Notes under the pieces: generated by a model
Databases searched by the model: none
Told to the model about the DNA's origin: nothing
Seen by the model: the letters and a program-made list of their open reading frames with translations, nothing else
Assembly (NCBI GenBank): GCA_902579065.1
Contig: CACHFI010000002.1
Span: 2,205-66,204 of the forward strand
Length of the DNA: 64,000 nt
From: an uncultured Bacteroidota bacterium
GTDB lineage: Bacteria > Bacteroidota > Bacteroidia > Flavobacteriales > BACL11
Direction of reading: 5' to 3'
In this document: positions 29,873 to 63,152 of the stretch, piece after piece
Position numbering within the stretch: the stretch's first letter is position 1
Layout of the letters: each line of letters opens with the position of its first letter
Made by a program: the position numbers and the translations under genes

Positions 29873-31261
29873 TTAATTTTTTGCACTTTTTTGCACTTTT
29901 TTGCACTTTTTTGCACTTTTTTGTGTGTTTTTTACAATTTTTAGCATTTTTTTCATCACCTCATCAGTATCCCAAAGTTCATTTATATTTTCAATAGACA
30001 TAATTTGTTCCATTAATTTTTCTTGCTTCATGCCTATTTTCCACGCTTCTGAATAGGGAGTGTTTGTAAAAGAAACCATACTGTACAAAGGGACCCATTT
30101 TTCTGGATGAAGCTTAGAGAATTTTTGCTCAATCTTTTTCTGTAATAAGAATTTTGGATCTGCTGTTTTGTCACGCATAACAATAAAATTGTGCAAAGAC
30201 AAATCCTGCAAACCATCTCCATTTGACTTTCGAGCCTGAGAATATCTAATTAAAATACTTTTCAAATCATCCTCATCATTTATCAATTCATCTAAAATCC
30301 TACAATCCTCAAAACTAGCATTCATTCCTTGACCATAAAATGGCACTGTAGCATGAGCTGAATCTCCAATTAAAACACAATAATCATTAAGATGCCATGG
30401 ATAACACTTAAAAATTCCCATTGAAGAAGTTGGATTCTTAAAAAACTGATCGGAAAGGTCGGGAATCAATTTAGTAAAATCTGGAAAAACTCTACTAAAA
30501 AATTCATTTACCTTTTGAGTCGTATCTAGCTTTTCGAAAGAATCATTTCCTTCAAAAGGAGAAAAAAGTGTACAAGTATAGCTACCATCTAAATTAGGTA
30601 ATGCAATGAGCATAAAATTTCCTCTCGGCCAAATATGCAATGCATTCTTTTCGATTTTATGTGTTCCATCTGGATTTGCAGGAATTAATAATTCTTTATA
30701 ACCATGCTCAATATAAAATTGAGAAAACTGAAAACGATCCTGACGCATCATTTTATCTCTCACAGCTGAATAAGCCCCATCGGCACCAACGATTAAATCA
30801 CATTCAATTGTAATATTTTTTTGTGTTGCATTATTATAAAAAATAAGTTCAGCTTTATCGAAGCTTACATCAATGCACTTATGATTAAAGAAAATTTTAG
30901 CCCCTTCTTTTTCGGCAAGATTCATTAATAAAACATTCAACCCCCCTCTTGGAACAGAAAAAATTGCTTGATCTTCATTACCATAATATTGATCTGTGAG
31001 ACTACCATCATCATCATGCATAATTCTTTTAGGCATTGGTATGGCTATATCTCGAACATATTCATCCACGTTTACTTTTTCTAAAGCTGTCCACCCTCTT
31101 TTTGATAAAGCGAGATTGATTGAGCGTCCCGCAACTAAAGCTGTTTTGCGCATATCTGGCCTGCGCTCATAAATTCTAACTTGATACCCTCTCTTGAGCA
31201 TGTAAAGAGCACATAAAGAACCTGCTAATCCAGCACCAACTATTACTATGTTTTTTTTCAT
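29873..31261 (-). CDS. kmo: Kynurenine 3-monooxygenase
   Basis: FAD motif IVIVGAGLAGS, GDSAHATVPFYGQGMN motif, 462 aa. Abuts kynU with no gap. Confidence 0.9.
   Translation of the reverse strand: MKKNIVIVGAGLAGSLCALYMLKRGYQVRIYERRPDMRKTALVAGRSINLALSKRGWTALEKVNVDEYVRDIAIPMPKRIMHDDDGSLTDQYYGNEDQAIFSVPRGGLNVLLMNLAEKEGAKIFFNHKCIDVSFDKAELIFYNNATQKNITIECDLIVGADGAYSAVRDKMMRQDRFQFSQFYIEHGYKELLIPANPDGTHKIEKNALHIWPRGNFMLIALPNLDGSYTCTLFSPFEGNDSFEKLDTTQKVNEFFSRVFPDFTKLIPDLSDQFFKNPTSSMGIFKCYPWHLNDYCVLIGDSAHATVPFYGQGMNASFEDCRILDELINDEDDLKSILIRYSQARKSNGDGLQDLSLHNFIVMRDKTADPKFLLQKKIEQKFSKLHPEKWVPLYSMVSFTNTPYSEAWKIGMKQEKLMEQIMSIENINELWDTDEVMKKMLKIVKNTQKSAKKCKKVQKSAKN
29877..29926. repeat. 10-bp direct tandem repeat, four perfect copies plus one degenerate copy
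   Basis: TTGCACTTTT at 29881-29890, 29891-29900, 29901-29910 and 29911-29920, followed by TTGTGTGTTT. It encodes the KMO C-terminal tail ...QKSAKKCKKVQKSAKN*. Confidence 0.9.
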
Positions 31262-32512
31262 TTACAAAGTTTCTTCCAGAATTTTACAAAAATTATATAC
31301 ATCTAAGTAACTATTATACAAAGGAACTGGAGCTACACGAATTACATCAGGTTCTCTCCAATCAGCTATTACTCCTTTTTTTGTAATTTCATTAAATAAA
31401 TTTTTATCTCCATTTTTTACACTTAAAGATATCTGACAGCCTCTTTCATTAGGTGTGATTATTTTAATTCGATCATTTGGCAACTGACCAAGTAGAAAAA
31501 CTAAATAAGAGGTTAACTGTTTTGATTTTTCTACTAGTGATGGCATTCCAACTTCATCAAAAATAGATAAAGAAGCTCTAACAGCTGCTAAAGAAAGAAT
31601 AGGAGGATTACTTAATTGCCAGCCTTCAGCTGTTTCAATAGGCATAAATTCATCTGGCATTTTAAAACGACTTTCCTTGTTATGCCCCCACCATCCTGCA
31701 AATCTTTCTAGTTTTCTTTTATGATGTTTTTCGTGTATAAAAACCCCGGCAACTGAGCCCGGACCAGAATTTAAATATTTATATGAACACCAAACAGCAA
31801 AATCAACTCCCCAATCATTTAGCGATAATTCAATATTGCCAGCAGCATGTGCCAAATCAAATCCTACCATAATATTATACTTATGAGCATAATCTGTAAT
31901 TTTCTGCATGTCGAAAACTTGACCTGTATAGTAATTAACTCCTCCTAGCAAAATCAGAGAAATAGAATCAGAATTTTCATTAATAATGTTTAATATATCT
32001 TCTGTCCTCACTACAACCTCTCCTTTTCTTGGAGCAAGCTTTATTAAAGATGAAGATGGATCAAGCCCATGATGTTTAATATGTGACTCAACAGCATAAA
32101 TATCAGAAGGAAATGCATCAGACTCAATTATAATTTTATAACGAACCTTAGTTGGCCTATAGAATGAGACCATCATTAAATGAAGGTTGACAGATAAGGT
32201 GTTCATAGCAACCACTTCATTCTCTTTAGCACCAACTATTTTTGAATAACTTGAAGACAAAAATTCATGATAAGGCAACCAGGGGTTTTTGGCATGTAAA
32301 TGCCCTTCAACTCCAAGGCTTTTCCAATCCTCTAATTCTTGTTGCACGAACTCTTCAGTATTTTTTGATTGTAACCCAAGAGAATTACCGCAAAGATAAA
32401 TATACTTATCTCCGTTATTTTGAAGAGGAAAATAAAACTTGTCCTGATAAGAAGCAAGAGGATCTTTTTTATCAAGTTCTAAAGCAAATTCTATTGAGTT
32501 TTTAAATGTCAT
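31262..32512 (-). CDS. kynU: Kynureninase
   Basis: PLP-lysine region CSYKYLNSGPG, YLCGNSLGLQ, 416 aa. Confidence 0.9.
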   Translation of the reverse strand: MTFKNSIEFALELDKKDPLASYQDKFYFPLQNNGDKYIYLCGNSLGLQSKNTEEFVQQELEDWKSLGVEGHLHAKNPWLPYHEFLSSSYSKIVGAKENEVVAMNTLSVNLHLMMVSFYRPTKVRYKIIIESDAFPSDIYAVESHIKHHGLDPSSSLIKLAPRKGEVVVRTEDILNIINENSDSISLILLGGVNYYTGQVFDMQKITDYAHKYNIMVGFDLAHAAGNIELSLNDWGVDFAVWCSYKYLNSGPGSVAGVFIHEKHHKRKLERFAGWWGHNKESRFKMPDEFMPIETAEGWQLSNPPILSLAAVRASLSIFDEVGMPSLVEKSKQLTSYLVFLLGQLPNDRIKIITPNERGCQISLSVKNGDKNLFNEITKKGVIADWREPDVIRVAPVPLYNSYLDVYNFCKILEETL

Positions 32513-33302
32513 TTAATTTAAAAATTAATGGGCGACTTGGGGCAGCATCAGAAACAAAAGAAGGTATTTGTAAGTTTAACAGATATTTACCATCTTCTAT
32601 TTTTTCATCAACATATATCATTTCTGTAATTGTATAATTTTTAGTATTACTATTGTACTTTTTAGCTTCAGTATCCCAAAAAATATTATGGCTGCTCAAA
32701 ATGCCATCATCAAACAACCTATCCACTGAAGGGGTATCAACCAAAAGATGTTCTACACCTCTTTTTCTTAAATATTTCATTGCTTCTATAGAAAAAAAAG
32801 GCGGTGGTTGCTGCATATAATCTTGCGACATTTTAATTTTTGAGTTTGGATATGTTCTGATTATTAACCCTTCTAAAAAAGCATCAGAGATATTATTTAG
32901 TTTTTCTTCCAACATGTGCCTGGTAATCAAAAGGTCTTCAGAATTTAAATTTGGAAAATACGTTTCTTTACTATTATTTGGAGTAACTGAAATTAGTGTG
33001 CTTTTTATAAAAACTTCTTTTAAAGCAAGATTAATTGAAATCCTTTCTTTTGTAATATGACCTATACACTCTGTATGAGTACCATTACAATGGGGCGTTA
33101 TCTTAAATGTCTCGAAATTGCATGGACCTCCCTCTCTTGTGTCTCCAATAAAATCATCATCCCTATATGGTGATGAAGTAGCTTTTTCAACATTATATGT
33201 GTTTGGCTGCAAACCATTAAAGTTTACAGGTATAGATAAGTCATAATATTCTGAAAAGTCAATTGAGTATGATTTACCTCCTAACTTAAAATTTACATTC
33301 AT
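32502..33302 (-). CDS. Cyclase-family protein, putative divergent kynurenine formamidase
   Basis: HCNGTHTECIGH resembles the cyclase/KynB metal motif HxGTHxDxPxH with D->E and P->G. LLVDTPSVD...SSHNIF resembles the second conserved block. It sits inside the operon with an 11-nt overlap with kynU. Confidence 0.5.
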   Translation of the reverse strand: MNVNFKLGGKSYSIDFSEYYDLSIPVNFNGLQPNTYNVEKATSSPYRDDDFIGDTREGGPCNFETFKITPHCNGTHTECIGHITKERISINLALKEVFIKSTLISVTPNNSKETYFPNLNSEDLLITRHMLEEKLNNISDAFLEGLIIRTYPNSKIKMSQDYMQQPPPFFSIEAMKYLRKRGVEHLLVDTPSVDRLFDDGILSSHNIFWDTEAKKYNSNTKNYTITEMIYVDEKIEDGKYLLNLQIPSFVSDAAPSRPLIFKLNDI

Positions 33303-33305
33303 TTT

Positions 33306-34340
33306 TTATAAATCTTCTTCTCTCTTATTAAGCCAGTTCAATACATTCTTACACCAAATGTCTTTAGCTTCTTGCTTAGTCAAAATTCCATTTTCAACAG
33401 CATAATCTATCACTCTTCCTGGATAAGATGTTCCAACACCTTCCATTTCTCCTAAAGGAAAAGGATCATCTAATCCCATGATTAACTGACTCACTCCAAC
33501 TCTTTTCTTTAATAAATCAAGCGTATGCGAATCATGAACAAGAGTATCAAAATACAAGTTCTTATGGCCTAAAGTTTTTCTCGGATCTTCTAATTCTTCA
33601 AAGATATCTGGACGTCCATCAAAACCCTGAATTCTTCTCCCATAGCTAGCTATACCTAACATTCCTCCGTGTGCAAAACTTGTTCTCAAATTAGGAAATT
33701 TGTTAGGTAAATCTCTTAATGTAAATAAATGAAGGGTATCGGCGCATTGTGCCATCATCCAAATCAAATGAAATCTCCAATATTTATTTTTTAATGCTAT
33801 CATTTTTTCACCATCATAAGGGTGAATTTGAATTGCTAAACCATGGTGATTTGCAAGTTCATAAATCGGATCAACATCAGATTCTGCTGTTGACATCCAT
33901 TCGCCTTTAGAATTTAAAAAATGTGAAGGCAAACATAAAACACGTAGATTCAATTTCACACATCTTTCAATTTCCTTTAGTGCGTGTTCAATATACATTG
34001 GCTGAACAACAAACCCACATGTAAACTTTTTGGGATAATCATTTTGTACTGAAGCATTAAAATCATTTTGAAATTGAATCCCATCAAAGCAATCTTGCTT
34101 TTTCCAACCATTACAATATAATTGTGAAAGACATAGCATTACACCATGGTCGATGTTATGCTGATCCATCCACTCTATTTTTTCTTTTACAAAAAAACTT
34201 GCTCCATTAATTGGCCTAGACCAATCTGCTTGTCTCATAAACTTCTTATCATCATCTATCCAAAACAACTTTTTCTCTCTCATAAAAGCAGGTATTTGAG
34301 AAGGCTCAGGAAGTATATGACCGTGTCCGTTTATTCGCAT
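33306..34340 (-). CDS. 2-amino-3-carboxymuconate-6-semialdehyde decarboxylase (amidohydrolase-2 family)
   Basis: N-terminal metal ligands MRINGHGHILP. Size (344 aa) and the FAHGG / YFDT..H / GLDDPFP blocks are typical of ACMSD-type amidohydrolases. Confidence 0.75.
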   Translation of the reverse strand: MRINGHGHILPEPSQIPAFMREKKLFWIDDDKKFMRQADWSRPINGASFFVKEKIEWMDQHNIDHGVMLCLSQLYCNGWKKQDCFDGIQFQNDFNASVQNDYPKKFTCGFVVQPMYIEHALKEIERCVKLNLRVLCLPSHFLNSKGEWMSTAESDVDPIYELANHHGLAIQIHPYDGEKMIALKNKYWRFHLIWMMAQCADTLHLFTLRDLPNKFPNLRTSFAHGGMLGIASYGRRIQGFDGRPDIFEELEDPRKTLGHKNLYFDTLVHDSHTLDLLKKRVGVSQLIMGLDDPFPLGEMEGVGTSYPGRVIDYAVENGILTKQEAKDIWCKNVLNWLNKREEDL

Positions 34341-34349
34341 ATCTTATTA

Positions 34350-34886
34350 TTAATCACTAACGTATCTACTATCAGCCTCCATTACCTCACCTGTTTTTGG
34401 ACATGTTCTGAGCTTTTCATCAGAATAAAAACGTTTAAATACAGGTAAGAAATCTTTTTCAATATTAGTTAAGTGAAAATATTCCTCATAAAGTAATTCA
34501 TTAGCTGTATCTGAAAACCACATTAGACCATCTTTATCATTATTTGTTCTTTTTCTTTCAATAACTAAACCAATAGACCCTTCTGAACGAACAGGAGAAT
34601 GAGGTATTTTAGGTGGTAACAAAAACATTTCCCCCTCATTAATTGGAACCTCAACTAATTTACCATCTTGTTGTGTCTTTACAACAATACTTCCTTCTAT
34701 TTGGTAAAATAACTCTTCAGTTTCATTGTAATGATAGTCTTTTCGCGCATTTGGCCCTGCTACTATCATCACTATGTAATCTTCTGACTCAACATATAAG
34801 TTTTTATTTCCAACTGGAGGTTTAAGCAAATGTCTGTTTTCATCAATCCACTTTTGTAAGTTAAATGGTTTTTTAATTTTTGTCAT
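34350..34886 (-). CDS. 3-hydroxyanthranilate 3,4-dioxygenase (cupin)
   Basis: LQKWIDENRHLLKPPVGNK, KDYHYNETEELFYQIEG and PPKIPHSPVR match the HAAO cupin iron-ligand pattern. 178 aa. Confidence 0.9.
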   Translation of the reverse strand: MTKIKKPFNLQKWIDENRHLLKPPVGNKNLYVESEDYIVMIVAGPNARKDYHYNETEELFYQIEGSIVVKTQQDGKLVEVPINEGEMFLLPPKIPHSPVRSEGSIGLVIERKRTNNDKDGLMWFSDTANELLYEEYFHLTNIEKDFLPVFKRFYSDEKLRTCPKTGEVMEADSRYVSD

Positions 34887-34896
34887 AATTATATAT

Positions 34897-35331
34897 TTAA
34901 ATTGTTGCTATAACTTTTAATTCAATTGCAATTGGGGTTGGTAATGATTTAATTTCAATGGTAGTTCTACAAGGTTGATTTTCCTTAAAATATTCAGCAT
35001 ATATTTTATTATATATTTTAAAATCATCTTTCATATTAGTTAAAAAAACCTGAACATCTACAATATTGTCCCATGAAGAACCAGCATCTTCAAGAATATA
35101 TCTAACATTTTGAAATACTGAATGACACTGCTTAGCAATATCATAACTTTCGATTTCCCCCTCATCATTAAGTTTTACTCCTGGAATATTTTTTTGATTT
35201 GCAGCTCGTGGCCCTACCCCAGAAAGAAACAAAAATTCACCAACCTTTCTTGCGTGAGGATATAATCCTACTGCTTGTGGAGCTCTTTCACTATTAAATT
35301 TTTCTCCATTCATATCTATATTTTTAGACAC
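34897..35331 (-). CDS. RidA/YjgF-family protein, probable 2-aminomuconate deaminase
   Basis: APQAVGLYPHARKVGEFLFLSGVGP and the C-terminal CRTTIEIKSLP are RidA hallmarks. The operon context matches AmnD/NbaF-type deaminases. Confidence 0.7.
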   Translation of the reverse strand: MSKNIDMNGEKFNSERAPQAVGLYPHARKVGEFLFLSGVGPRAANQKNIPGVKLNDEGEIESYDIAKQCHSVFQNVRYILEDAGSSWDNIVDVQVFLTNMKDDFKIYNKIYAEYFKENQPCRTTIEIKSLPTPIAIELKVIATI

Positions 35332-36755
35332 ACGTTTTTTGGTTCAGTAAAAAATTGTAAAGATTTAAACCCGCCTTCTCTTCCAACTCCTGACTGTTTC
35401 ATCCCTCCAAATGGAATTCTTAAATCTCTTAACATCCAAGTATTAATCCATACAATTCCAGATTTTATTTTTGCAGCAACTCTATGTGCTCTACTAACAT
35501 TCTCAGTAAAAATACTAGCTGAGAGCCCATAATCTGTAGAATTAGCCATCAATATTACCTCGTCTTCATCTTTAAATGGTATTAATGTTAATACAGGTCC
35601 AAATATTTCTTCTTGATTAATACTGCAATCAAAAGGCAAACCATCAATAATAGTTGGTTCAATATAATACCCATTAGCATATTCGCCCTCAATAATTTTT
35701 CTTTTTCCTCCAAGTAATATTTTCCCTCCTAATTTTTTTGCTTCTTCAATTTTTGATAAAACTTTGTTCATATGGTCTATTGAAACTACAGCACCTAAAT
35801 CATTGGATTCTTTTGGGTTTCCTACTTTTAAAAGCGATGCTTTTGCAATAACTGCATTTTTAAATTTTTCGTATATGGTTTCCTCTACAAATAATCTGGA
35901 ACCACATAAGCATATTTGTCCTTGATTAGAAAAACCTGCTTTTACAGCCAGTGCAACAGCTTTTTCAAAATTAGCATCAGCAAATACAATATTTGGATTT
36001 TTCCCGCCTAACTCAAGAGATAATTTCTTAAACATGGGGGCAGCTAATTTAGCAATATGCTTACCAGTAACTGTTCCTCCAGTGAATGAGACAATAGGTG
36101 TATCAACATGAGTTGTGAGTGCATCACCCATTTTTGAACCAACTCCGTGAACGATATTTAATACTCCTTCTGGAAAATTAATTTCTTTACAAATCTTACT
36201 AAGCAAAAATGCGGTCATTGGGGTAATTTCAGAGGGCTTTGCAACAACTGTATTGCCAGCAGCCAAGGCTGGAGCAATTTTCCATGTCAAAAGATATAAT
36301 GGCAAATTCCATGGAGATATACAGGCGGCTACACCAACAGGCTCTCTTAAAGTATAATTTAATGCCTTGCCATCCATTTCATGTATCTCAGAAGAAAAAT
36401 GTAGTATAGCTGTAGCAAAAAATCTGAAATTTTCGGAAGCCCTTGGAATATCTACTATTCTAGCAAGAGTTTCTGGCTTTCCATTATCTTTACTTTCTGT
36501 AAGTATTAATTCTTCAGAATACTCATCAATCTTGTCTGCTAGATCCATTAACAAATCAGATCGTTGTTTTTTTGTTGTTTGACTCCAGCTTTCAAAAGCT
36601 TGTTTAGCAGATTTAACAGCAATATTAATATCTTCATAATTACTATCTGGAATTAATGAATATGGCTGTCCAGTAGCTGGGTTAAAATTTTCAAAGAAAT
36701 TTCCAGAGACTGGCTCAACTAATTCTCCATTAATATAATTATAAATTTTCTCCAT
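35316..36755 (-). CDS. Aldehyde dehydrogenase, probable 2-aminomuconate-6-semialdehyde dehydrogenase
   Basis: ALDH motifs LELGGKNP (catalytic Glu) and FSNQGQICLCGSR (catalytic Cys), plus EEIFGPV. 479 aa. Confidence 0.8.
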   Translation of the reverse strand: MEKIYNYINGELVEPVSGNFFENFNPATGQPYSLIPDSNYEDINIAVKSAKQAFESWSQTTKKQRSDLLMDLADKIDEYSEELILTESKDNGKPETLARIVDIPRASENFRFFATAILHFSSEIHEMDGKALNYTLREPVGVAACISPWNLPLYLLTWKIAPALAAGNTVVAKPSEITPMTAFLLSKICKEINFPEGVLNIVHGVGSKMGDALTTHVDTPIVSFTGGTVTGKHIAKLAAPMFKKLSLELGGKNPNIVFADANFEKAVALAVKAGFSNQGQICLCGSRLFVEETIYEKFKNAVIAKASLLKVGNPKESNDLGAVVSIDHMNKVLSKIEEAKKLGGKILLGGKRKIIEGEYANGYYIEPTIIDGLPFDCSINQEEIFGPVLTLIPFKDEDEVILMANSTDYGLSASIFTENVSRAHRVAAKIKSGIVWINTWMLRDLRIPFGGMKQSGVGREGGFKSLQFFTEPKNVCLKI

Positions 36756-36758
36756 ACA

Positions 36759-37538
36759 CTATAAACTTGATGTTCTTCCTCCATCTACAGGTAAATTAAT
36801 CCCATTTATATAACTTGCAGCAGGCGAGCTCAAAAATATAGTAGCATTTGCAACTTCACTTGCTTCACCAAATCTATTTAATGGTACTGATTTTTTCATT
36901 TCATTCTCGACTTCAATTTTTGACTTACCTAAAATGCTGGATTTTTTTTCAATCAAGGATTTCAATCTATTTGTATTTGTAAAGCCTGGCAGAACATTAT
37001 TTACAGTGATCCCGTATGAGCCCAATTCTAGTGATAATGTTTTTGCCCAATTTGCAACAGCCGCTCTAATTGTATTAGAAACTCCTAAACCAGGAATTGG
37101 AGCTTTTACAGAAGTAGAAATTATATTTATTATTCTCCCAAATGATTTTTTTTTCATTCCGCCTACAACCTTTTGAATCAGAATTTGATTATTTAATAGA
37201 TGCATTTTAAAAGCTAATAAAAAATCCTCAGCACTTGCATCGGCTATCGGACCAGAAGCTGGACCACCAGTATTATTTATTAAAATATCGTAGTTTGTTT
37301 TTTCTAAAATTTCAATTTTTTTAGCAAATTGATTATCTGCAAAATCTACACATAGGTAATTGTGATTTTGAGCTAAAGAAGTGTCAAGTGTATCAACGAC
37401 TTCTTTTAAAACACTTTCATTTCTAGCTATTAATGTTAAGCTTACCCCTTGCTTAGCCAAGCCAACTGCAATTGCCTTACCAATTCCTTGGGTACTACCA
37501 CACACAATAGCTTTTTTATTTCTTAATCCTAAATTCAT
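36759..37538 (-). CDS. SDR-fold protein with non-canonical active site, function unknown
   Basis: The cofactor motif GSTQGIG and NNTG are present. Where classical SDRs have YxxxK, 13 residues after the Ser, this protein reads S-N-T-I-R (ISTSVKAPIPGLGVSNTIRAAVANWAK). 4-nt overlap with TDO. Confidence 0.8.
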   Translation of the reverse strand: MNLGLRNKKAIVCGSTQGIGKAIAVGLAKQGVSLTLIARNESVLKEVVDTLDTSLAQNHNYLCVDFADNQFAKKIEILEKTNYDILINNTGGPASGPIADASAEDFLLAFKMHLLNNQILIQKVVGGMKKKSFGRIINIISTSVKAPIPGLGVSNTIRAAVANWAKTLSLELGSYGITVNNVLPGFTNTNRLKSLIEKKSSILGKSKIEVENEMKKSVPLNRFGEASEVANATIFLSSPAASYINGINLPVDGGRTSSL

Positions 37539-38632
37539 ATTTTTTTATTACTAAAATTAAAACTCAGTTTTTCCTCAATATTAGTTGGAAGCTTTGGCAG
37601 ATACTCTCTAGAAATCATAAGTGTTGCAATATTCGCAATATCCTCAAATAATCTATGTTTATCAACTGTTTGTTTTAAATACCCCTGACCACTTGATCCG
37701 CCAGTGCCAATTTTTTGACCTAACATCTTCTCAACCATCTGAACATGTCTAAATCTCCAAAGAGATATTTTATGGTCTATTTCAACCAGTTGGCGTAAAA
37801 ATTTATATGGCAATTGAAGTATCGGTTGCTCTCCATATAGATTAATTAATAATGCAGACATCGTGGCTTTATATGACAATTTTGTCATTCCGTTCTCATG
37901 AGATTGACGGTGATTTTTCTCATCAAAAATATTTTGAAAATATTTTTGATTTTCTTTAATCATCTTTATTCTAATAGCCTTATCATTGTCACTTATTGAT
38001 GAGGAATTGATGATCGACATTTCCCTGTCTAACATTTTTGCAACAGCAGATTTATATTGTTCAATAAAATCAAACCCCTCCATTTGTAAAAAAGGAATCC
38101 TTTCTAACCATTTTTCCACTAATGTAAATAATGAATTATCACTTTCTAAATCAAGAATCTCCTCTTTTTTTTCACCACTAAATTGATCGTGATATGGACA
38201 TCCTCCAAAGTGATGTCTTTTGTTAATTTTTAAACCAAGTATAACTTCTATTTTTCTAAACTGATGAGATTGAAAGCCAGAAGCTGGAGACAAATAATTT
38301 CTGAAATCTAAAAAATCAAGGGCTGTCATAGTTTCAAGAATGTCAAGTTGTTGTACTAAAACATCTAAAATTTTACTAACTCTATCAAAACGCCCTACTA
38401 CTATACCCACGTTTTCTTCATCCATTTTTTCTTTACTCAACAAATGAATCACTGAATTTATTTCATGAATAATCTGTTTAAACCACAACTCATATGTCTG
38501 ATGAATTATGATAAATAACATTTCTTCATGAGCTTCATTATTATTCCCTTTACTTAAAGGATGTTGAGCGTCAAGAATTTTATCTAGATCCAAATACTCA
38601 TTATAGTGAACAGATGAGGGTTTTTTAGACAT
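37535..38632 (-). CDS. kynA: Tryptophan 2,3-dioxygenase
   Basis: YNEYLDLDKIL..QHP, EMLFIIIHQTYELWFKQ and GTGGSSG motifs. 365 aa. Confidence 0.9.
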   Translation of the reverse strand: MSKKPSSVHYNEYLDLDKILDAQHPLSKGNNNEAHEEMLFIIIHQTYELWFKQIIHEINSVIHLLSKEKMDEENVGIVVGRFDRVSKILDVLVQQLDILETMTALDFLDFRNYLSPASGFQSHQFRKIEVILGLKINKRHHFGGCPYHDQFSGEKKEEILDLESDNSLFTLVEKWLERIPFLQMEGFDFIEQYKSAVAKMLDREMSIINSSSISDNDKAIRIKMIKENQKYFQNIFDEKNHRQSHENGMTKLSYKATMSALLINLYGEQPILQLPYKFLRQLVEIDHKISLWRFRHVQMVEKMLGQKIGTGGSSGQGYLKQTVDKHRLFEDIANIATLMISREYLPKLPTNIEEKLSFNFSNKKI

Positions 38633-38670: not shown

Positions 38671-39477
38671 TTACAAAAAGATTGATGTGAGAATTAAAAA
38701 AAACAAAAGAGAAATCGAACACGATTCAAGCCAAAAAGAATAATACAAACCGTCTTTTTTTTGATTATCCTTACATACAATATAAAACGAATATAAAAAA
38801 CAGAGAATGGTTGAAATAAAAAACCCAAAATTTAAATTATTTAAATACAAATACGAATCAATAATTAAAAAAAGTAATAAAAAAAAGACAGCTATTTTTT
38901 TAGCCATTTTATCTCCTACTAACATTGGAATCGTGTAAGTTTTTTTCTTATCGTATTCAACATCCCTGATGTCAAATGGAATAGTTATTGCAATAATGAA
39001 AAACATTCGGGATATTATTGATAAAACGACATTTGAATTTAGAACTAAATTGCTTTCATAGTAAATTAGTGCAACAGTAGAAAAAGACCACGAAAAAGCT
39101 ATTAGAAAAATTTTTAAATAAGGTGTTTTTCTTAAAATAGGATAGCTCAATGAAATAGTAGAAATCATTAAAACCATTAATTGAGTAATGCCACTTAACT
39201 TTAGAAATAAATTAGAAAAAATAATCACTGATATAAGCAGCAGAAATTGAAAAACATACTTGTTCTTTAAAATCCAGAAAGATTTTAAATCCTTTTTTAC
39301 TGTGTAACAAAAAATAAATCTTTGGAAATTATAAGACAAAAAAGTGCCAAAAAACAATAATAGAAGTATTTTAAAATCATACAGGCCTAATGTATATTGT
39401 GATACTAAAGCAAGAGAAAAAACAGATAGTGAAATAAAAAGTTTACTGCTTAAAACAAAATTAATTAAATGATTCAA
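38671..39477 (-). CDS. Polytopic membrane protein, UbiA-prenyltransferase-like (second Asp-rich motif only)
   Basis: About 8 hydrophobic helices. PFDIRDVEYDKKKTYTIPMLVG fits DxxDxxxD plus the following G...T.P...G block. No NxxxDxxxD is visible after TM2. Confidence 0.35.
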   Translation of the reverse strand: MNHLINFVLSSKLFISLSVFSLALVSQYTLGLYDFKILLLLFFGTFLSYNFQRFIFCYTVKKDLKSFWILKNKYVFQFLLLISVIIFSNLFLKLSGITQLMVLMISTISLSYPILRKTPYLKIFLIAFSWSFSTVALIYYESNLVLNSNVVLSIISRMFFIIAITIPFDIRDVEYDKKKTYTIPMLVGDKMAKKIAVFFLLLFLIIDSYLYLNNLNFGFFISTILCFLYSFYIVCKDNQKKDGLYYSFWLESCSISLLFFLILTSIFL

Positions 39478-59383: not shown

Positions 59384-60562
59384 ATGAAACAAGATCTTTT
59401 TCAAGCTCCAGATTATTTTAATATGGATGAGCTACTTACGGATGAACACAAATTAATTAGAGAGGCAGCTAGAGAATGGGTAAAAAAAGAAATCTCTCCT
59501 ATAATTGAAGATGCATGTCAAAAGGCCGAATTCCCGAGTCAAATTTTGCCTGGACTTGCAGAAATAGGTGCTTTTGGACCATATATTCCTGTTGAATATG
59601 GTGGAGCTGGATTAGATAACATATCATACGGTATCATTATGCAGGAACTTGAGCGAGGAGACAGTGGTATTAGGTCTACAGCATCAGTACAATCTTCTCT
59701 TGTAATGTATCCAATATTCAAGTATGGAAATGAAGATCAGCGCAAAAAATATCTACCCAAATTAGCTACTGGCGAACTTATGGGGTGTTTTGGATTAACT
59801 GAGCCTGATCACGGTTCAAATCCTGGTGGAATGACTACGAACATAAAAGATATGGGGGATCATTTTATTCTTAATGGTGCTAAAATGTGGATTTCTAACT
59901 CTCCCTTTGCAGATATTGCTGTAGTTTGGGCAAAAAACGAAGAAGGACGTATAAAAGGAGTGATTGTTGAAAGAGGGATGGAGGGGTTTACAACACCTGA
60001 AACTCATAACAAATGGAGTTTAAGGGCTTCAGCAACTGGAGAACTAGTTTTTGATAATGTAAAAATTCCAAAAGAAAATATTTTGCCAAATAAAGATGGG
60101 CTTGGAGCCCCACTTGGGTGTTTGGACTCGGCAAGGTATGGAATTGCTTGGGGAGCAATTGGTGCGGCAATGGACTGCTACGATACAGCTCTAAGATATT
60201 CAAAAGAAAGGATTCAATTTGGTAAGCCAATTGCCGCTTTTCAACTTCAACAAAAGAAACTTGCAGAAATGATAACTGAAATAACAAAAGCTCAGTTTAT
60301 TACCCTAAGATTAGGGCAACTTAAAAATGAAGATAAAGCAACCTCCGCTCAAATATCTATGTGTAAAAGAAATAATGTAGAAATGGCTTTGAACATCACA
60401 AGAGAAGCAAGGCAAATCCTTGGGGGGATGGGAATAACTGGGGAATATTCTATTATGAGACATATGATGAACTTAGAATCTGTGATCACATATGAAGGAA
60501 CCCATGACATACATCTTCTCATTACAGGATTAGATATTACAGGCGAAAATGCATTTAAATAA
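59384..60562 (+). CDS. gcdH: Glutaryl-CoA dehydrogenase (acyl-CoA dehydrogenase family)
   Basis: DSGIRSTASVQSSLVMYPI, GCFGLTEPDHGSNPGGM, ARYGIAWGAIGAA and C-terminal TYEGTHDIHLLITG..ITG follow the GCDH pattern. Confidence 0.8.
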   Translation: MKQDLFQAPDYFNMDELLTDEHKLIREAAREWVKKEISPIIEDACQKAEFPSQILPGLAEIGAFGPYIPVEYGGAGLDNISYGIIMQELERGDSGIRSTASVQSSLVMYPIFKYGNEDQRKKYLPKLATGELMGCFGLTEPDHGSNPGGMTTNIKDMGDHFILNGAKMWISNSPFADIAVVWAKNEEGRIKGVIVERGMEGFTTPETHNKWSLRASATGELVFDNVKIPKENILPNKDGLGAPLGCLDSARYGIAWGAIGAAMDCYDTALRYSKERIQFGKPIAAFQLQQKKLAEMITEITKAQFITLRLGQLKNEDKATSAQISMCKRNNVEMALNITREARQILGGMGITGEYSIMRHMMNLESVITYEGTHDIHLLITGLDITGENAFK

Positions 60563-62798: not shown

Positions 62799-63152
62799 TT
62801 ACTTATCTCTTTTAATTTTTGCTGAAATTTTGGTAAAAACTGAATCAATTGGAACGTTTAATTTTTCAACCTCGACCTCAACATTATGAACATAATCTAA
62901 AGTTAGTATTTGATCAGCAATTCTTGCTGCAACATGTTCAATCATATTAGATCTAATTGCCATTTGCTCTTCAACAATATTAATTAGTTTAACATAGTCA
63001 ACTGTATCCTGTAAATCATCTGATTTTTCTACCTCACTTGTATCAGAATTTACATAAACATTAACAATAAAATGACCGCCTAAAACTGCCTCTTCTGGTA
63101 AATGGCCGTGATATGCAAATAATTTAATTCCTTCTATCTTAATTAATCCCAT
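62799..63152 (-). CDS. folB: Dihydroneopterin aldolase
   Basis: 117 aa. IKIEGIKLFAYHGHLPEE and DTVDY blocks are typical of FolB. Confidence 0.85.
   Translation of the reverse strand: MGLIKIEGIKLFAYHGHLPEEAVLGGHFIVNVYVNSDTSEVEKSDDLQDTVDYVKLINIVEEQMAIRSNMIEHVAARIADQILTLDYVHNVEVEVEKLNVPIDSVFTKISAKIKRDK

Follow-up and report, generated by a model that had tools for sequence, protein, structure and literature searches.

For decades, charts of tryptophan catabolism have shown 2-aminomuconate or 4-oxalocrotonate being reduced to 2-oxoadipate with no gene beside the step. Proteobacteria (Burkholderia cenocepacia, Pseudomonas) bypass this step by decarboxylation: their 2-aminomuconate deaminase is followed by 4-oxalocrotonate decarboxylase, hydratase, and aldolase. 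Animals use ASPDH and obtain a different product: according to a preprint of June 2026, the human 2-aminomuconate reductase is ASPDH, which forms 2-aminohex-3-enedioate, and fungi rely on a RidA-type deaminase; the short-chain dehydrogenases/reductases (SDRs) are not mentioned there (bioRxiv 10.64898/2026.06.05.730449). In the literature searched, no bacterial gene is assigned to the reduction of 2-aminomuconate or oxalocrotonate: a figure of a 2026 review shows “oxalocrotonate reductase” only as a box without a gene, and in a fungal gene-cluster paper an SDR is merely a syntenic neighbor. A candidate for this orphan step lies in a 64,000-nt stretch of DNA (the window) from contig CACHFI010000002.1 of an uncultured bacterium of the Flavobacteriales lineage BACL11, in which a kynurenine operon includes a gene for an atypical SDR (Table 1). 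A preliminary description of this gene, made from the sequence alone, had proposed it for a reduction “unassigned even in mammals”, a phrase which the ASPDH report has made outdated.

Why should a reductase be sought here? Its neighbors, as encoded, are predicted to cover tryptophan breakdown down to 2-aminomuconate or 4-oxalocrotonate, and the SDR is the sole enzyme of the operon without an assigned step. The identities first given to three neighbors are borne out by their best matches in the PDB, which are 2-aminomuconate-6-semialdehyde dehydrogenase (AMSDH) for the aldehyde dehydrogenase (ALDH), 2-aminomuconate deaminase for the RidA protein, and ACMSD for the amidohydrolase; without a further step by the SDR, the encoded pathway would thus stop at 2-aminomuconate or 4-oxalocrotonate. 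The tight packing described earlier can be read directly from the DNA: the SDR start codon (ATG, 37538-37536) and the TDO stop codon (TGA, 37537-37535) merge into ATGA, the two open reading frames (ORFs) sharing 4 nt, and the SDR stop codon (TAG) ends at 36759, followed by a 3-nt gap (TGT) and the ATG of the ALDH gene at 36755. The upper part of the lower pathway resembles that of Proteobacteria, which also have HAO, ACMSD, AMSDH, and a RidA-type deaminase; the two differ in what follows, a decarboxylase, a hydratase, and an aldolase in Proteobacteria and the SDR here. Indeed, in Pfam scans of nearly all ORFs of at least 90 aa in the window (four ORFs at 25.6-28.4 kb and 62.8 kb, 62799-63152 among them, were assessed visually or left out), neither an aldolase nor a 4-oxalocrotonate decarboxylase or hydratase of the FAA-hydrolase type turned up, which fits the premise of a reductive route. 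The window also encodes glutaryl-CoA dehydrogenase, the enzyme expected downstream of 2-oxoadipate once the latter has been converted to glutaryl-CoA.

By analogy with characterized relatives (see below), the SDR is tentatively proposed, with confidence that falls a little short of even, to be an NADPH-preferring 2-oxohex-3-enedioate reductase. It would act after aminomuconate-semialdehyde dehydrogenase and the RidA-type 2-aminomuconate deaminase: 2-oxohex-3-enedioate (4-oxalocrotonate in its keto form) would accept a hydride from NADPH at C4, and the resulting enolate would be protonated at C3 to give 2-oxoadipate, which would then enter the glutaryl-CoA route. K145, R191, and R158 may bind the 2-oxo-acid and carboxylate groups, and H113 may serve as the proton donor. 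Such a route would replace the decarboxylase/hydratase/aldolase branch of Proteobacteria. ASPDH offers a partial parallel, an NAD(P)H-dependent reduction right after 2-aminomuconate in the kynurenine pathway, but it has an aspartate dehydrogenase fold that the SDR lacks, involves no deamination, and does not yield 2-oxoadipate; furthermore, ASPDH and the RidA-type deaminase are mutually exclusive in eukaryotes, according to the preprint, while the SDR coexists with RidA.

The active site of this SDR is not that of a classical family member. The nucleotide-binding motifs reported in the preliminary description, GSTQGIG (G14-x3-G18-x-G20) and NNTG (N88-G91), are both present, and the by-eye substitutions of the catalytic Tyr and Lys by Ser and Arg hold up in a MAFFT alignment with Escherichia coli FabG, in which N110, S138, Y151, and K155 correspond to H113, S141, S154, and R158. 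Only the Ser of the Asn-Ser-Tyr-Lys tetrad is kept; the replacement of Asn by His had been overlooked. In an alignment of 91 sequences that reaches down to 36% identity, S154 and R158 are invariant, N155, R39, and R191 reach a conservation of at least 90%, and S141, K145, and T189-x-R191 are likewise each conserved to at least 90% or without exception. Of 1.84 billion cluster representatives searched, 557 matched with E ≤ 1e-30, and among the ~130 best full-length representatives of 50%-identity clusters the pattern S141-x-S-x-K145...S154-N155-x-x-R158...P184-G-x-T-x-T189-x-R191 is near-invariant. His113 and Asn117 are each at least 95% conserved in 84 orthologues; His113 is typical of the closer relatives, with Asn, Thr, or Leu in more distant ones. 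As these alignments indicate, the substituted tetrad is a family trait of a large SDR subfamily and not a product of chance or decay. A label of FabG (3-oxoacyl-ACP reductase) was considered and rejected: all NCBIfam matches fall far under their cutoffs, and the Tyr/Lys pair is absent.

Could a protein that has lost the canonical Tyr and Lys be a pseudo-enzyme, or a nucleotide-binding regulator? This is highly improbable: the substituting residues hardly vary across hundreds of clusters, the cofactor motifs are intact, relatives crystallize with NADP(H), and AerF and BacG (see below) are active although they too lack Tyr at this position. A basic residue after strand β2 is the usual mark of a preference for NADP(H), and R39 occupies this place. 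Together with the Gly-rich loop it is conserved, and the structures close to that of this SDR all carry NADP(H).

What do these close structures tell about chemistry? An AlphaFold2 model built on the 91-sequence alignment (pLDDT 97.3, pTM 0.93) consists of alternating β and α elements; all its structural neighbors in a Foldseek search of the PDB are SDRs, and only SDR families match the sequence (adh_short_C2, PF13561, 1.5e-37; adh_short, PF00106, 2.4e-31). The Foldseek ranking places Burkholderia SDRs first, AerF second, and YwfH/BacG third, all ahead of ordinary ketoreductases. The best matches (E ~1e-40 to 1e-42), 5vps from B. ambifaria, 5idx/5idy from B. vietnamiensis, and 5va8 from B. phymatum, superimpose with TM-scores of 0.93-0.94 (5va8/5vps/5idy) at only 31-33% identity. 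They bind NADP(H) and share S141, K145, S154-N155-x-x-R158, and R191 with the operon SDR, from which they differ by having Asn, not His, at 113; the structures carry no functional assignment. The same S-N-x-x-R motif in these NADP(H)-bound proteins means that the non-canonical site defines an existing, functionally orphan subfamily; the substitution of the tetrad, though real, is not peculiar to this gene.

AerF and BacG supply what the Burkholderia structures lack. AerF from Microcystis (6jha/6jhb), 36% identical to the operon SDR (TM-score 0.92, phmmer 6.8e-40) and crystallized with NADPH and 4-hydroxyphenylpyruvate, is described as an NADPH-dependent C=C reductase with a conjugated 2-oxo acid as substrate (2020 work cited in PMC10143770). 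It resembles the operon SDR in having Ser in place of Tyr at the classical position and in sharing K145, R191, and R39, but differs in Lys113/Tyr117 (His113/Asn117 here), Asn158 (Arg158), and Gly141 (Ser141), and works in secondary metabolism rather than in catabolism. Bacillus subtilis BacG (YwfH; 3u49/3u4c), the NADPH reductase of bacilysin/tetrahydrotyrosine biosynthesis, is 33% identical (TM-score 0.89 for 3u4c, 3.6e-32), of equal length and with coinciding numbering, and shares K145 and R191. Its reaction is a conjugate addition of hydride to dihydro-hydroxyphenylpyruvate, an unsaturated 2-oxo acid. Its tetrad, reportedly Lys113-Tyr117-Ser155-Asn158 (Rajavel et al. 2013; the positions agree with the BacG sequence), corresponds to His113-Asn117-Asn155-Arg158 in the operon SDR. 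K145 and R191 are thus common to the operon SDR, AerF, BacG, and the Burkholderia proteins, while FabG has Thr and Met there. Since it lacks the Lys113/Tyr117 dyad, which lies on the helix where SDRs normally bear the tetrad Asn, the operon SDR does not, strictly speaking, belong to the BacG/AerF type; judged by these alignments, it is a sister type to the BacG/AerF ene-reductases. The reduction that AerF and BacG carry out, at a C=C bond in conjugation with a 2-oxo acid, is the chemistry needed to convert 2-oxohex-3-enedioate into 2-oxoadipate.

The order of the last two steps may also be the reverse: the SDR would reduce 2-aminomuconate, at C4=C5 or as its imine tautomer, and RidA would then hydrolyze 2-iminoadipate or the enamine to 2-oxoadipate and ammonia. 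Such a reaction corresponds to the “2-aminomuconate reductase” of the classical scheme, and hydrolysis of 2-imino acids is the canonical activity of RidA; the SDR gene precedes those for ALDH and RidA, the SDR-ALDH-RidA triad stays together even outside kynurenine clusters, and animals have an NAD(P)H-dependent 2-aminomuconate reductase, though of an unrelated fold. Yet the structure closest to this RidA, 6izh, is deposited as a 2-aminomuconate deaminase, which acts on 2-aminomuconate directly, and the substrates of AerF and BacG are 2-oxo acids rather than 2-amino or enamine acids; the reversed order is accordingly held to be rather unlikely.

If the SDR serves this pathway, its orthologues should keep company with kynurenine genes elsewhere, and the preliminary description had named the lack of such an association in other taxa as a refutation. 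A scan of 185,579 species genomes yielded 80 loci with orthologues 55-81% identical to the SDR, in which the operon proteins were then placed by tblastn; linkage was scored within 10 kb of the orthologue. Kynurenine-pathway genes lie beside it at 45 of the 80 loci, in several gene orders and phyla. Among marine Flavobacteriales, whose metagenome-assembled genomes (MAGs) are the closest relatives of the window, the operon is preserved at all 37 species loci, to the extent that the contig covers it, in the order TDO-SDR-ALDH-RidA-HAO-ACMSD-KFA-KYNU-KMO. Elsewhere, two Phycisphaerae MAGs have SDR-ALDH-RidA, an Ignavibacteria MAG has TDO-SDR-DUF4286-ALDH, one locus (L070) has a complete but rearranged cluster, and HAO divergently adjoins the SDR in four Bacteroidota. 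Beyond these loci, two more distant representatives (P0133 and P0144) are linked to kynurenine genes (another contig, P0125, is too short to judge): among the distant relatives, one of 49% identity (L082) adjoins KFA-KYNU, with QPRT nearby, and one has TDO 5 kb away. A neighbor-joining tree shows the linked loci dispersed within the orthologue clade. The expected association thus recurs in other lineages but is not universal. The candidacy of the SDR as the reductase gains from this recurrent synteny and from homology to AerF and BacG but loses some uniqueness, given a family-wide trait, existing structures, and a known mammalian gene; its substrate and activity are purely conjectural.

Several observations weigh against a 2-oxohex-3-enedioate reductase. 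With His113/Asn117 in place of the dyad of BacG and AerF, their mechanism is not simply transferable, and what can be said of the function of the whole S-N-x-x-R subfamily comes from sequence and structure. Two Phycisphaerae MAGs have the SDR-ALDH-RidA triad (L054, 7243-14633; L073, 130-5296) with an ALDH of the hydroxy/aminomuconate-semialdehyde type but no HAO or ACMSD within 10 kb, and the L082 cluster (KFA, KYNU, QPRT) looks like one for NAD biosynthesis, with no ALDH or ACMSD in view. Three of the five distant representatives with readable context (P0130, P0137, and P0164) show no kynurenine genes. Finally, about 35 of the 80 orthologue loci have no kynurenine gene within 10 kb, and a search of the conserved neighbors at these unlinked loci for functional clues turned up only housekeeping genes (gltX, cytidine/guanine deaminase-like, RecX, RsmB, M23 peptidase, and TPR proteins).

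Such neighborhoods would suit a housekeeping or broad-range reductase of the FCB group, whose substrate is unrelated to tryptophan and whose gene became embedded in the operon by chance in some lineages. Likewise, there are no fixed sequence differences between 47 linked and 37 unlinked orthologues, which share 75 positions at ≥95% conservation and look isofunctional, and distant paralogues occur in other catabolic clusters, such as plasmid-borne DHDPS-family-SDR pairs. This alternative is nevertheless unlikely, though it deserves slightly more weight than the others: streamlined genomes (the G+C content of the window is 30%) keep the SDR, with its start/stop overlap, in a nine-gene operon at every one of the marine Flavobacteriales loci (some contigs being incomplete), and the association with pathway genes recurs across gene orders and phyla. 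Moreover, Bacteroidota often scatter the genes of a pathway, and missing linkage is therefore weak evidence.

The SDR may instead do another job within the same pathway, namely carbonyl reduction or detoxification of a reactive side product; candidate targets are the quinone-imines from 3-hydroxyanthranilate or 3-hydroxykynurenine and the semialdehydes ACMS (2-amino-3-carboxymuconate-6-semialdehyde) and AMS (2-aminomuconate-6-semialdehyde). At several loci it is paired not with ALDH and RidA but with HAO (divergent; L049, L059, L066, and L075), TDO, or KFA-KYNU, and L082, with QPRT and without ACMSD and ALDH, is such a case. But ALDH is the commonest and closest neighbor of the SDR; ordinary carbonyl reduction is less likely without the catalytic Tyr, and the characterized relatives reduce C=C bonds. 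L082, for its part, differs at K145 and N117 and for this reason may not be isofunctional. On balance, another role in the pathway appears improbable.

Returning to the proposed 2-oxohex-3-enedioate reductase, what would it mean? If the assignment is right, it would give the first gene for the orphan reduction to 2-oxoadipate, complete a bacterial route from tryptophan to glutaryl-CoA in marine Flavobacteriales, an abundant group, and add a third, undescribed fate of 2-aminomuconate: RidA-type deamination, reduction to 2-oxoadipate, and glutaryl-CoA. A wider proposal, which is more doubtful than the assignment of the single enzyme, is that the SDR with His113/Ser154-Asn155/Arg158 is the missing oxalocrotonate reductase in Bacteroidota, other FCB-group bacteria, and some Planctomycetota, and that the S-N-x-x-R subfamily as a whole consists of Tyr-independent conjugate reductases of 2-oxo-3-enoic acids. 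A large subfamily, which comprises hundreds of 50%-identity clusters and several orphan crystal structures with no function attached, would thereby gain a chemistry.

Table 1. Features of the kynurenine operon, of the SDR gene, and of the downstream route (window coordinates)
Feature	Position	Strand	Details
Atypical SDR, candidate NADPH-dependent conjugate (C=C) reductase	36759..37538	-	259 aa, ATG start; second gene of the block
Gly-rich dinucleotide-binding motif G14-S-T-Q-G-I-G20	37479..37499 (codons)	-	G18 and G20 invariant in the 91-sequence alignment
His113 codon (CAT)	37200..37202	-	Aligns with the tetrad Asn of SDRs and with the catalytic Lys113 of BacG/AerF
S154-N155-T-I-R158 codons (TCT AAT ACA ATT AGA)	37065..37079	-	In place of Y-x-x-x-K; from alignments
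Tryptophan 2,3-dioxygenase (TDO)	37535..38632	-	PF03301, 5.8e-98; first gene of the block
2-aminomuconate-6-semialdehyde dehydrogenase-like ALDH	35316..36755	-	Best PDB matches 7bzv, 4u3w, 4i1w, E ~1e-124 to 1e-126
RidA-family protein, likely 2-aminomuconate deaminase	34897..35331	-	Best PDB match 6izh (deposited as 2-aminomuconate deaminase), 3e-22
3-hydroxyanthranilate 3,4-dioxygenase (HAO)	34350..34886	-	NF009763, 256 bits vs 220-bit cutoff
ACMS decarboxylase (ACMSD)-like amidohydrolase	33306..34340	-	Best PDB match human ACMSD 2wm1, 2.9e-29
Cyclase-family kynurenine formamidase (KFA) candidate	32502..33302	-	PF04199; weak match to TIGR03035
Kynureninase (KYNU)	31262..32512	-	TIGR01814, 450.8 bits, above cutoff
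FAD monooxygenase, presumed kynurenine 3-monooxygenase (KMO)	29873..31261	-	Family matches and conserved synteny; last gene of the operon
Glutaryl-CoA dehydrogenase	59384..60562	+	E ~1e-127 to 2eba (bacterial) and 1sir (human); 22 kb from the operon

Directly upstream of the TDO-to-KMO block lie leuS and a gene for a UbiA-family membrane protein. The latter (38671-39477, minus strand), located between leuS and TDO, is found at the same place in most marine Flavobacteriales relatives, despite an identity of only 31-55%. At the other end of the operon, about five copies of a 10-nt tandem repeat (TTTTTTGCAC; 29877-29926) fall within the 3′ end of the KMO gene and yield a repeated ...QKSAKKCKK... 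tail, as well as a probably spurious GTG start of the next (DUF4197) ORF; with a period not divisible by 3, slippage would alter the reading frame at the C-terminus of KMO.

In the two Phycisphaerae MAGs, the triad follows M20 and M24 metallopeptidase genes and, in L054, precedes an amidase-signature gene; a different feed-in to the same SDR-ALDH-RidA module is possible there. Paralogues of 35-38% identity with the same S-N-x-x-R motif are found on rhizobial and Rhodococcus plasmids (L087, 6075-7759; L088, 6069-9241), where they follow a DHDPS-family gene with a start/stop overlap and, in Rhodococcus, are themselves followed by an ALDH gene. These partners hint that the wider subfamily may act on 2-oxo acids produced by Schiff-base aldolases or dehydratases, though this is not evidence for the SDR of the kynurenine operon.

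Among otherwise syntenic operons of the relatives, the HAO+ACMSD pair comes in two versions (L003-L009 and L036-L037 vs L010-L032): in one, HAO is ~85-95% and ACMSD 80% identical to the window proteins; in the other, ~60% and 28%. The identities of SDR and ALDH shift smoothly across the same loci, a pattern that looks like cassette replacement within the operon. Relatives also carry an extra ORF for a 150-aa GNAT-like acetyltransferase between ALDH and RidA and, in some cases, one for a 352-aa secreted leucine-rich-repeat-like protein between TDO and SDR; one or both of these extras occur in L007 (12225-12677 and 8942-10000), L006, L009-L012, L014, L016, and L018.

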